Positions 9,897-10,055 of a stretch of 61,378 nucleotides of DNA are shown here, one piece after another. The stretch lies in NCBI GenBank assembly GCA_051652765.1, contig JBOFUV010000061.1, positions 1 to 61,378 of the forward strand. The letters are read 5' to 3'. The stretch's first letter is position 1; every line of letters begins with the position of its first letter. A program made the position numbers and the translations under genes. Source of the stretch: Microcoleaceae cyanobacterium. Lineage in GTDB: Bacteria > Cyanobacteriota > Cyanobacteriia > Cyanobacteriales > Microcoleaceae. A model generated the notes under the pieces. It searched no databases, had not been told where the DNA came from, and was given only the letters and a program-made list of their open reading frames with translations.

Positions 9897-10055
9897 GCAT
9901 AACTGGTTATTATGCTGAAATTTTCTACATCACCAATGCTTTTAGGATGACTACCCTGAAACTTTCTAGATCATCCACCCTGATACTGTAACTACACTGA
10001 AACTTTCTGGATATCCATCCTAAATTTGAGGATTACCCCGAAAAAGCTAGGGGTG
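9897..10055 (-). other. attI-like recombination core with four degenerate repeats at 41-bp period
   Basis: GCATAA-CTGGTTA-TTATGC (9897-9915), which reads GTTATGC on the minus strand; CYGAAA-centred units start at 9915, 9956, 9997 and 10038. Confidence 0.45.

Follow-up and report, generated by a model that had tools for sequence, protein, structure and literature searches.

Features of the locus

The window, by which we mean the whole 61,378-nt contig (C61) analysed here, comes from a draft Microcoleaceae assembly (G000; 5.04 Mb in 158 contigs, rated 99.97% complete) and carries two sites with integron-like features (Table 1). At the first, a GCATAA-N7-TTATGC core occupies 9897-9915, and the central motifs of repeated units start at 9916, 9957, 9998 and 10039; both the core and a spacing of exactly 41 bp had been reported by a first-pass annotation. 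That annotation also placed four units after the core. Four motifs are indeed present, but unit 1 overlaps the right half of the core and unit 4 ends early, at 10043. In the family to which the site belongs, each unit consists of two IntI-box-like heptamers arranged tail-to-tail around TGAAANTTTC; several of these boxes are degenerate in the window copy. The units form a predicted accessory integrase-binding array.

Table 1. Features at and around the two sites, in window coordinates
Feature	Position	Strand	Remarks
Inverted copy of 48-nt repeat	6271-6318	-	closes the island on the rbcL side
Accessory genes downstream of attI	6762-9598	-	four ORFs, no attC among them
DUF346 repeat protein	6762-7637	-	in accessory island
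Two ORFs without Pfam match	7634-8104 and 8154-8525	-	in accessory island
AraC regulator	8699-9598	-	64% match elsewhere in G002
Cassette-type 5' leader	9855-9896	-	directly past the crossover; score 7.7, reached by 0.46% of 5000 random positions
attI core	9897-9915	-	R box GTTATGC (minus strand), 5-nt spacer, L box 9909-9915; the homologous G002 region precedes full-length intI
Four 41-bp units, last truncated	9909-10043	.	85-87% identity to 9 of 10 full copies, 70% to the tenth
48-nt small dispersed repeat	10059-10106	+	at the point where the module is cut
radC	10165-10896	-	chromosomal neighbour, in place of the missing intI
Serpin gene	30639-31793	-	after the last attC, cassette-type leader in front; own attC not found
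attC site	31885-31973	-	72.8 bits; folding energy alone no better than shuffles
DUF433/DUF5615 gene pair	32041-32666	+	cassette between two attC, inverted relative to the array
attC site	32756-32842	-	covariance model 59.3 bits; bottom strand -15.9 kcal/mol vs -7.4 ± 2.4 for shuffles
Second module remnant, fifth unit only	33046-33121	+	attI core, units 1-4 and intI all missing
Shared tail part, then 13 TTGATCT(C/T) short tandem repeats	33231-33667	+	common to other modules
Degenerate attC, possible and weak	33973-34055	-	13.1 bits, E 0.46; partial HMM match E 2e-4; behind the tail, on the array strand

The left 6 nt of the core derive from the inserted cassette, and the right half, TTATGC here, reads TTATAT in most other copies. 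All 22 copies of the family part ways immediately left of AAC, which would put the crossover in the window copy between 9903 and 9902. The leader just beyond it was scored with a matrix trained solely on leaders that follow attC sites, and is a sign that this site once took up a cassette. The perfect symmetry of the core was dropped as evidence: the window holds 22 perfect 6-bp inverted repeats with a 7-nt spacer, and 23 occurrences of TAA-N7-TTA.

The covariance model, run with filters off, detected no attC between 6200 and 9900, so that the cassette status of the AraC and DUF346 genes is unproven. The two ORFs within 7634-8525 encode 156 and 123 aa and lie upstream of, and overlap, the five-repeat DUF346 protein; together they are possibly a split lectin-like operon under the AraC regulator. 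The island is flanked by the inverted 48-nt repeat, with no target duplication evident by eye. Further copies of this repeat occur on C64 (at an array end), C145 and C56 and in the congener G002. The intI stump found in most other copies is deleted. Having lost both stump and attC, the window copy belongs to the most decayed of the family, represents a late stage and is probably inert. Rfam at gathering thresholds gave no match in the window, and a consensus sigma-70 scan for a Pc promoter that would drive the cassettes found no site in the window copy and two in one full copy, against 1.2 expected.

At the second site, the sequence at 33067 is present as the first-pass annotation gave it, but its interpretation as a second attI core was rejected. 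The stretch 33046-33121 aligns to positions 197-272 of the full element, that is, to its last unit just before the intI start codon, and homology extends about 21 bp to the left of GCCTAAC, so no crossover lies there. Nor do the genes at the head of this site lie on the minus strand as had been described, since the DUF433/DUF5615 pair immediately to the left is on the plus strand. The site is best read as another module copy that lost its attI and retained two attC. Both attC have the paired R''/R' and L''/L' stem with conserved AAC/GTT, and their bit scores come from a model whose training set excluded the window. With at least two attC and no nearby intI, the array at 31885-32842 is a CALIN by definition. 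The short tandem repeats at 33286-33667 have a TTGATCT core in units of about 22 nt; 21 arrays of this type occur in the genome, 13 in module tails or related remnants and the others apart.

A dispersed family of attI sites

BLAST and pattern scans identified the site at 9897 as the left 147 bp of a ~300-bp element, with 87.8% identity over those 147 bp to another copy (E 3e-47). Genome-wide, the core pattern gave 24 matches, of which two (on C29 and C99) were dropped by eye as chance; the remaining 22 cores are spread over 20 contigs, and the proposed dispersed family is thus real. The 220-kb contig C34 alone carries three cores, in both orientations, and the neighbouring housekeeping genes differ from core to core. 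Mutual identity among ten full copies of the main lineage is 80-97% (median 92%).

The element leads into an ATG, the start of an integron integrase N-terminus. A stump of its first 20-117 codons is kept in 17 of the 22 copies, mostly about 21 codons long. Across G000, 18 loci hold 19 N-terminal IntI pieces, of which the longest extends to about residue 118 and is frameshifted. No IntI C-terminus or intact intI was found in the assembly, with nothing above the TIGR02249 cut-off; the four remaining matches are weak and fall in catalytic domains of other recombinases. In G002 the element (302 bp, 71.5% identity) lies directly 5' of a full-length intI, which scores above the TIGR02249 cut-off and carries one internal stop. 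This identifies the element as the stretch of an integron from attI to intI, and the earlier suspicion that the site at 9897 is attI-like is borne out. Whether any copy adjoins intI, a question left by the first-pass annotation, has a divided answer: stumps in G000 and the full gene in G002, but nothing intact in G000. The separate class of integrase-free docking sites that it envisaged gives way to decayed copies of an intI-attI platform.

Every copy retains the attI-proximal part, and losses are on the intI side. Among 13 copies, differences number 52/630 in boxes versus 41/623 in spacers (p = 0.28) and 13/194 in the core; selection on the boxes among copies was thus not detected, core and boxes being no better conserved than spacers, which leaves current function unsupported. 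The stumps differ at 19/210 third codon positions versus 4/210 second positions (p = 0.002), a bias indicating that the copies diverged while intI was functional.

In 12 of the 17 stumps the truncation lies at one common junction, beyond which follows a tail containing short tandem repeats; these 12 copies carry different first cassettes. The junction is found in both deep module lineages (support 1.0). On C45, C67 and C101 the far end of the tail coincides with an inverted-repeat end that is also found beside an IS4/5 transposase fragment. A copy of the tail with neither attI nor intI stump lies at C74:26932-27005.

attC arrays and cassette junctions

A structural scan gave 1107 attC candidates, from which 23 sharing a motif were taken as seed irrespective of position; two HMM rounds from this seed yielded 91 attC in G000. 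A covariance model was built by aligning 20 sites of G000 and 6 of relatives; these 26 show compensatory change in 11 of the 16 pairs. The model detected 86 sites genome-wide at E ≤ 0.1.

On the cassette side of the cores, a same-strand attC occurs within 7 kb at 17 of 22, within 5 kb at 16 and within 2 kb at 14, against random expectations (20,000 positions) of 2.9%, 2.1% and 1.2%. Five cores have no such attC, three of them ≤2.1 kb from a contig end. Chaining links 43 of the 91 attC to an attI; the other 48 are unchained, many near contig ends. Most of the sites do stand at the 5' end of attC arrays, one of the points that the first-pass annotation had wanted checked. The findings that would speak for another identity, namely a motif lacking further copies, lacking any tie to attC or cargo, or proving to be an operator or a MITE end, did not emerge.

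At 10 of 17 cores the four variable bases are identical to the inverse core of the first attC, and at 15 of 17 no more than one base is mismatched. Permutation gave a mean of 2.5 identities, and 10 were reached in 0 of 100,000 trials (p < 1e-5; p = 8e-5 for at most one mismatch). Such matching is the expected trace of cassettes joined at GTT.

A leader of about 35 nt is conserved after the GTT of many cassettes genome-wide and resembles the central part of the attC family, a resemblance that may bear on how cassettes are made. With a leader matrix trained on 16 of 73 sequences following attC, 12 of the 22 attI-adjacent sequences, the window copy included, exceed the 99th random percentile. One attI-adjacent sequence has a 50-nt identity to the sequence following an attC elsewhere.

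The 41-bp array in cyanobacterial integrons

Full-length or long intI matches were collected at 80 loci, 56 of them cyanobacterial by title, and a core was detected upstream in 37 of these 56, among which a few cores may be misplaced and kin loci are not independent. Heptamers were located with a matrix derived from the inverse cores of attC. Those of the R type concentrate at offsets 30, 70-74, 109-114 and 150-154, and inverted heptamers at 12, 52, 92-96, 131-136 and 175; offsets 0 and 12 are circular, having been used for core picking, while the remaining offsets are not. The inverted-to-direct distance of 18 occurs 30 times versus 0.3 in shuffles, and like-to-like distances of 40-41 occur 21 and 17 times versus 0.7 and 0.3. 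The outer heptamers are periodic 5' of intact intI genes, while the central GAAANTTTC is found in only 24 of the 37 loci. The 41-bp array, with paired IntI-box-like heptamers up to the intI start, is thus a conserved feature of cyanobacterial integrons.

The class 1 site attI1 has the same TAA-N7-TTA spacing. Its published description, as far as available, gives a site of about 65 bp with R and L boxes and two accessory direct repeats, DR1 and DR2 (PMC4792948). The cyanobacterial attI likewise combines R and L boxes with accessory upstream repeats, but unlike attI1 its heptamer pairs recur every 40-41 bp through a region of 150-240 bp that reaches the intI start (PMC4792948). By analogy with DR1/DR2, the heptamer pairs would be extra IntI binding sites.

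Dispersal and junctions in related genomes

G002 has 10 module matches, namely eight cores, a fragment and a stump at the edge of a contig. On the integrase side, their flanks map away from the G000 modules, and each stump ends at a different codon. A third genome, G001, has one module remnant. Between G000 and G002 the modules are 84-92% identical and some cassettes 89-93%, whereas most core genes are at about 65-81%. Empty sites for six of six loci were not found in G001 or G002, where the flanks are on different contigs or non-collinear; the insertion junction is therefore not seen in G000.

Of 400 other genomes in the phylum, 114 have a match to an N-terminal IntI profile at E ≤ 0.05, with noise among the weak matches; scoring stopped at 16 candidates. 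By hand count, 22 genomes have at least three matches, which are not copy numbers, and G000 has at least 16. Among 26 loci, mostly from closed genomes, an intI piece has a cassette-side attC in 16 and is without attC in 9, the last locus being ambiguous. In the closed genome G072, a full intI and four stumps occupy five widely separated loci between 0.95 and 4.71 Mb, all five with a cassette-side attC (one weak), and G295 has a full copy and, 2.3 Mb away, a 23-codon stump whose core matches its first attC. Since the same dispersal is seen in closed genomes, it is no assembly artefact; it is real and recurrent, with G000 the extreme of the sample.

Two relatives supply junctions. In the closed genome G016, five different attC run from GTT into one shared sequence, identity rising from 0.59 over the 40 nt preceding the junction to 0.87 beyond it. 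Four of the five units lead, via a PIN-like ORF region (labelled without a domain scan), to intI or a stump, and attI was detected in three. The clearest case of a platform that appears to move like a cassette is G016:C1:4478000-4498500 (L062-L063), where tandem intI-attI units lie at attC crossovers, two with intact intI ORFs. In G002:C63 (L027:1737-2025) a whole attC is fused exactly to the GTT inside intI codon 69, and this integrase gene appears to have been cut by its own reaction. Judged by sequence, these junctions point to IntI moving and cutting its own platform. Left junctions of this kind are a minority: just one of 26 stumps and one of five tails terminate at AAC, an attC lies on the 3' side at 3 of 49 cyanobacterial full-length intI loci (compared with 21 of 28 for the canonical upstream attC), and a same-genome pair of full copies, 95% identical, ends without GTT. 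A universal integrase-made left boundary was rejected on these counts.

Origin of the modules

The explanation we favour, and think probable, is that the site at 9897 is an attI with its upstream repeat array, one of 22 copies that arose by duplication of a working platform, loading and loss of intI. The order of events, as we infer it, would begin with a working intI-attI platform copied or imported repeatedly and, at least sometimes, moved by the integrase itself. Each copy would likely have been loaded with different cassettes by attI x attC recombination, and the integrase gene then lost by deletion from its 3' end. The shared tail may have spread later among the 12 stumps by homologous recombination between modules. 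As vehicle, a circle with platform plus attC would be likelier than an attI circle, because published insertion at genomic GWT sites is by attC and not attI: for IntI1 in E. coli, the available text reports insertion of attC into genomic sites and no significant rate for attI (10.1101/2022.09.11.507474). Without an integrase from outside, the arrays are predicted to stay as they are today. Against this explanation stand the lack of attC at the window attI and at 5 of 22 cores overall, the failure of attI to insert significantly into genomic sites reported for IntI1, the exceptional status of integrase-made left junctions and the missing empty site; the truncation common to 12 of 17 stumps also fits the copying of an already dead module.

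More tentatively, one may imagine a self-propagating distributed integron, run by cyanobacteria, in which IntI would move its own gene and attI like a cassette, disable spare copies by recombining attC into intI and leave tens of docking sites over the chromosome for loading in trans by a single integrase, whether resident or acquired for a time; its array of 8-10 boxes, spaced by four helical turns and extending to the intI start codon, would serve cooperative loading and self-repression rather than LexA control.

We consider it unlikely that the system is still live, in which case selection would maintain the integrase-less attI for docking or as cassette promoters, and an integrase from another member of the population, or one acquired by transformation, would still load them in trans. 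A live system would account for retention of the attI-proximal part in every copy while the intI side is lost, for the differing first cassettes behind one truncation, for G072 and G295 with their one full intI and distant stumps with arrays, and for modules and some cassettes that are closer between G000 and G002 than most core genes. Yet an assembly rated 99.97% complete holds no intact intI, boxes are no better conserved than spacers, promoter scans of the modules gave nothing above chance, and many copies are decayed. It is improbable, too, that a dead attI-stump-tail module spread as a passive non-autonomous element, carried by insertion-sequence ends or small repeats. The junction common to 12 of 17 stumps, the tails on C45, C67 and C101 that end at the IS4/5-associated inverted repeat, and the 48-nt inverted repeat around the window island can be read that way, but the common junction occurs in both deep lineages, which points to recombination among modules, and the G002 copies are dispersed; in none of six G002 stretches did the tail find a match, and the G002 stumps all end elsewhere. 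Moreover, the cassette-side boundary is always a GTT crossover, the stumps bear the mark of purifying selection, and the window island has no target duplication evident by eye.

A single large array broken by rearrangement or assembly gaps was refuted as main cause and is very improbable: a draft of 158 contigs with 48 of 91 attC unchained, many near contig ends, may invite the idea, but fragmentation cannot multiply attI into 22 cores, three of them on a 220-kb contig in both orientations, and closed genomes have the same pattern. We give just as little credence to a reading without integrons, in which the repeats would be transcription-factor operators or a Xer/dif-type site. In its favour are the palindromic units and the AraC gene downstream of the site, but the array stands 5' of intact intI in 37 cyanobacterial loci, 24 of them with the central palindrome, and is tied to attC arrays. 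It is possible that a host regulator also binds the central motif.

Relation to known integrons

The usual picture of an integron is a single sedentary platform that holds one attI and one array, and how integrase-less arrays (CALINs) arise is, to our knowledge, an open question. For sedentary chromosomal integrons, the available text of two surveys describes frequent integrase inactivation, pseudo-integrons attributed to intragenomic duplication, and more than one intI in about 20% of carriers (Nemergut 2008, PMC2426708; Cambray 2011, PMC3108266). The modules share with these the intI-attI-cassette anatomy and intI inactivation but differ in having 22 attI at unrelated loci, with stumps mostly of about 21 codons; in the parts available, neither survey targeted short intI stumps or attI sites (PMC2426708; PMC3108266). 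CALIN, SALIN and In0 elements were described as small attC clusters with no nearby integrase and possible mobilisation in trans (Cury 2016, PMC4889954), and cassettes are reported to insert at genomic GWT (attG) sites (10.1101/2022.09.11.507474). G000 likewise has attC clusters with no nearby integrase (PMC4889954; 10.1101/2022.09.11.507474), but unlike CALINs its arrays begin with an attI of their own and an N-terminal piece of intI (PMC4889954). According to the accessible sections, that survey found intI pseudogenes near 15 of 279 CALINs with a C-terminal profile and judged attI unsearchable for most integrons (PMC4889954); because of the C-terminal profile it would miss stumps such as these.

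Genus-wide integrase decay with CALINs at several loci, reported in Xanthomonas, has its counterpart in the decayed integrase here. In the part of that report available, intI has a single ancestral locus (ilvD) and the species share their CALIN positions, whereas here positions differ between congeners and each carries attI (10.1101/2025.06.18.660453). Defective class 1 integrons flanked by MITEs or IMUs resemble the modules in that defective integron pieces move, but paired mobile ends were not demonstrated in the G000 modules (PMC3575428). The delta-attI-type cassettes are, as far as described in the accessible text, similarly attI-bounded units recombined by IntI, but the G016 unit from attC crossover to attI contains intI itself (PMC12901181).

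Already on record, in the portions of the literature available, are cyanobacterial integrons, a cyanobacterial attC model, intI pseudogenes by duplication, multiple integrons per genome, CALINs and attG insertion (PMC4889954, 10.1101/2022.02.06.479319, 10.1101/2025.06.18.660453, PMC3108266, PMC4792948, PMC2426708, PMC8352920, 10.1101/2022.09.11.507474, PMC3575428, PMC8876359, PMC12901181, PMC12614218). Neither dispersed attI sites nor a periodic attI array in cyanobacteria was found in a search that largely left out subscription journals, and the element tables of PMC4889954 and PMC2426708 may list multi-copy cyanobacterial cases. The integron parts themselves being known, what appears new is a multiplied, decayed platform with an extended attI. 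Arrays headed by their own attI and stump offer a concrete, testable origin for cyanobacterial CALINs, and short N-terminal stumps of this kind escape C-terminal searches. A cyanobacterial attI with an unusually long periodic repeat array is now defined and searchable, and the junctions in G016 and G002 are evidence that an integrase may move and cut its own gene.

Cassette cargo

From nine arrays 56 ORFs were picked and 54 scanned; restriction-modification, PIN, HepT/nucleotidyltransferase, DUF433/DUF5615, Cap4 nuclease, Mrr and GNAT domains were found, and toxin-antitoxin genes were also noted. With restriction, toxin-antitoxin and Cap4-nuclease genes as cargo, the layout of the arrays bears on how cyanobacteria stock defence genes.

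Two further cassettes were noted. (i) The first cassette at C34:144054-147569 (L074:7555-11070) of G000 is 3.7 kb long and encodes a Cap4-nuclease-domain protein, a small ORF and an AAA ATPase, a three-gene set that looks like an anti-phage system. (ii) A cassette of about 125 bp at C67:15882-16006 has no room for a 70-residue ORF and contains a small hairpin. Its homologues lie on C74, C50, C116, C10, C34, C22, C21, C30, C82, C103 and C136, with 12 long copies (81-100%) plus fragments, situated both directly at attI (C50, C67) and after attC; it is possibly a promoter or RNA cassette.
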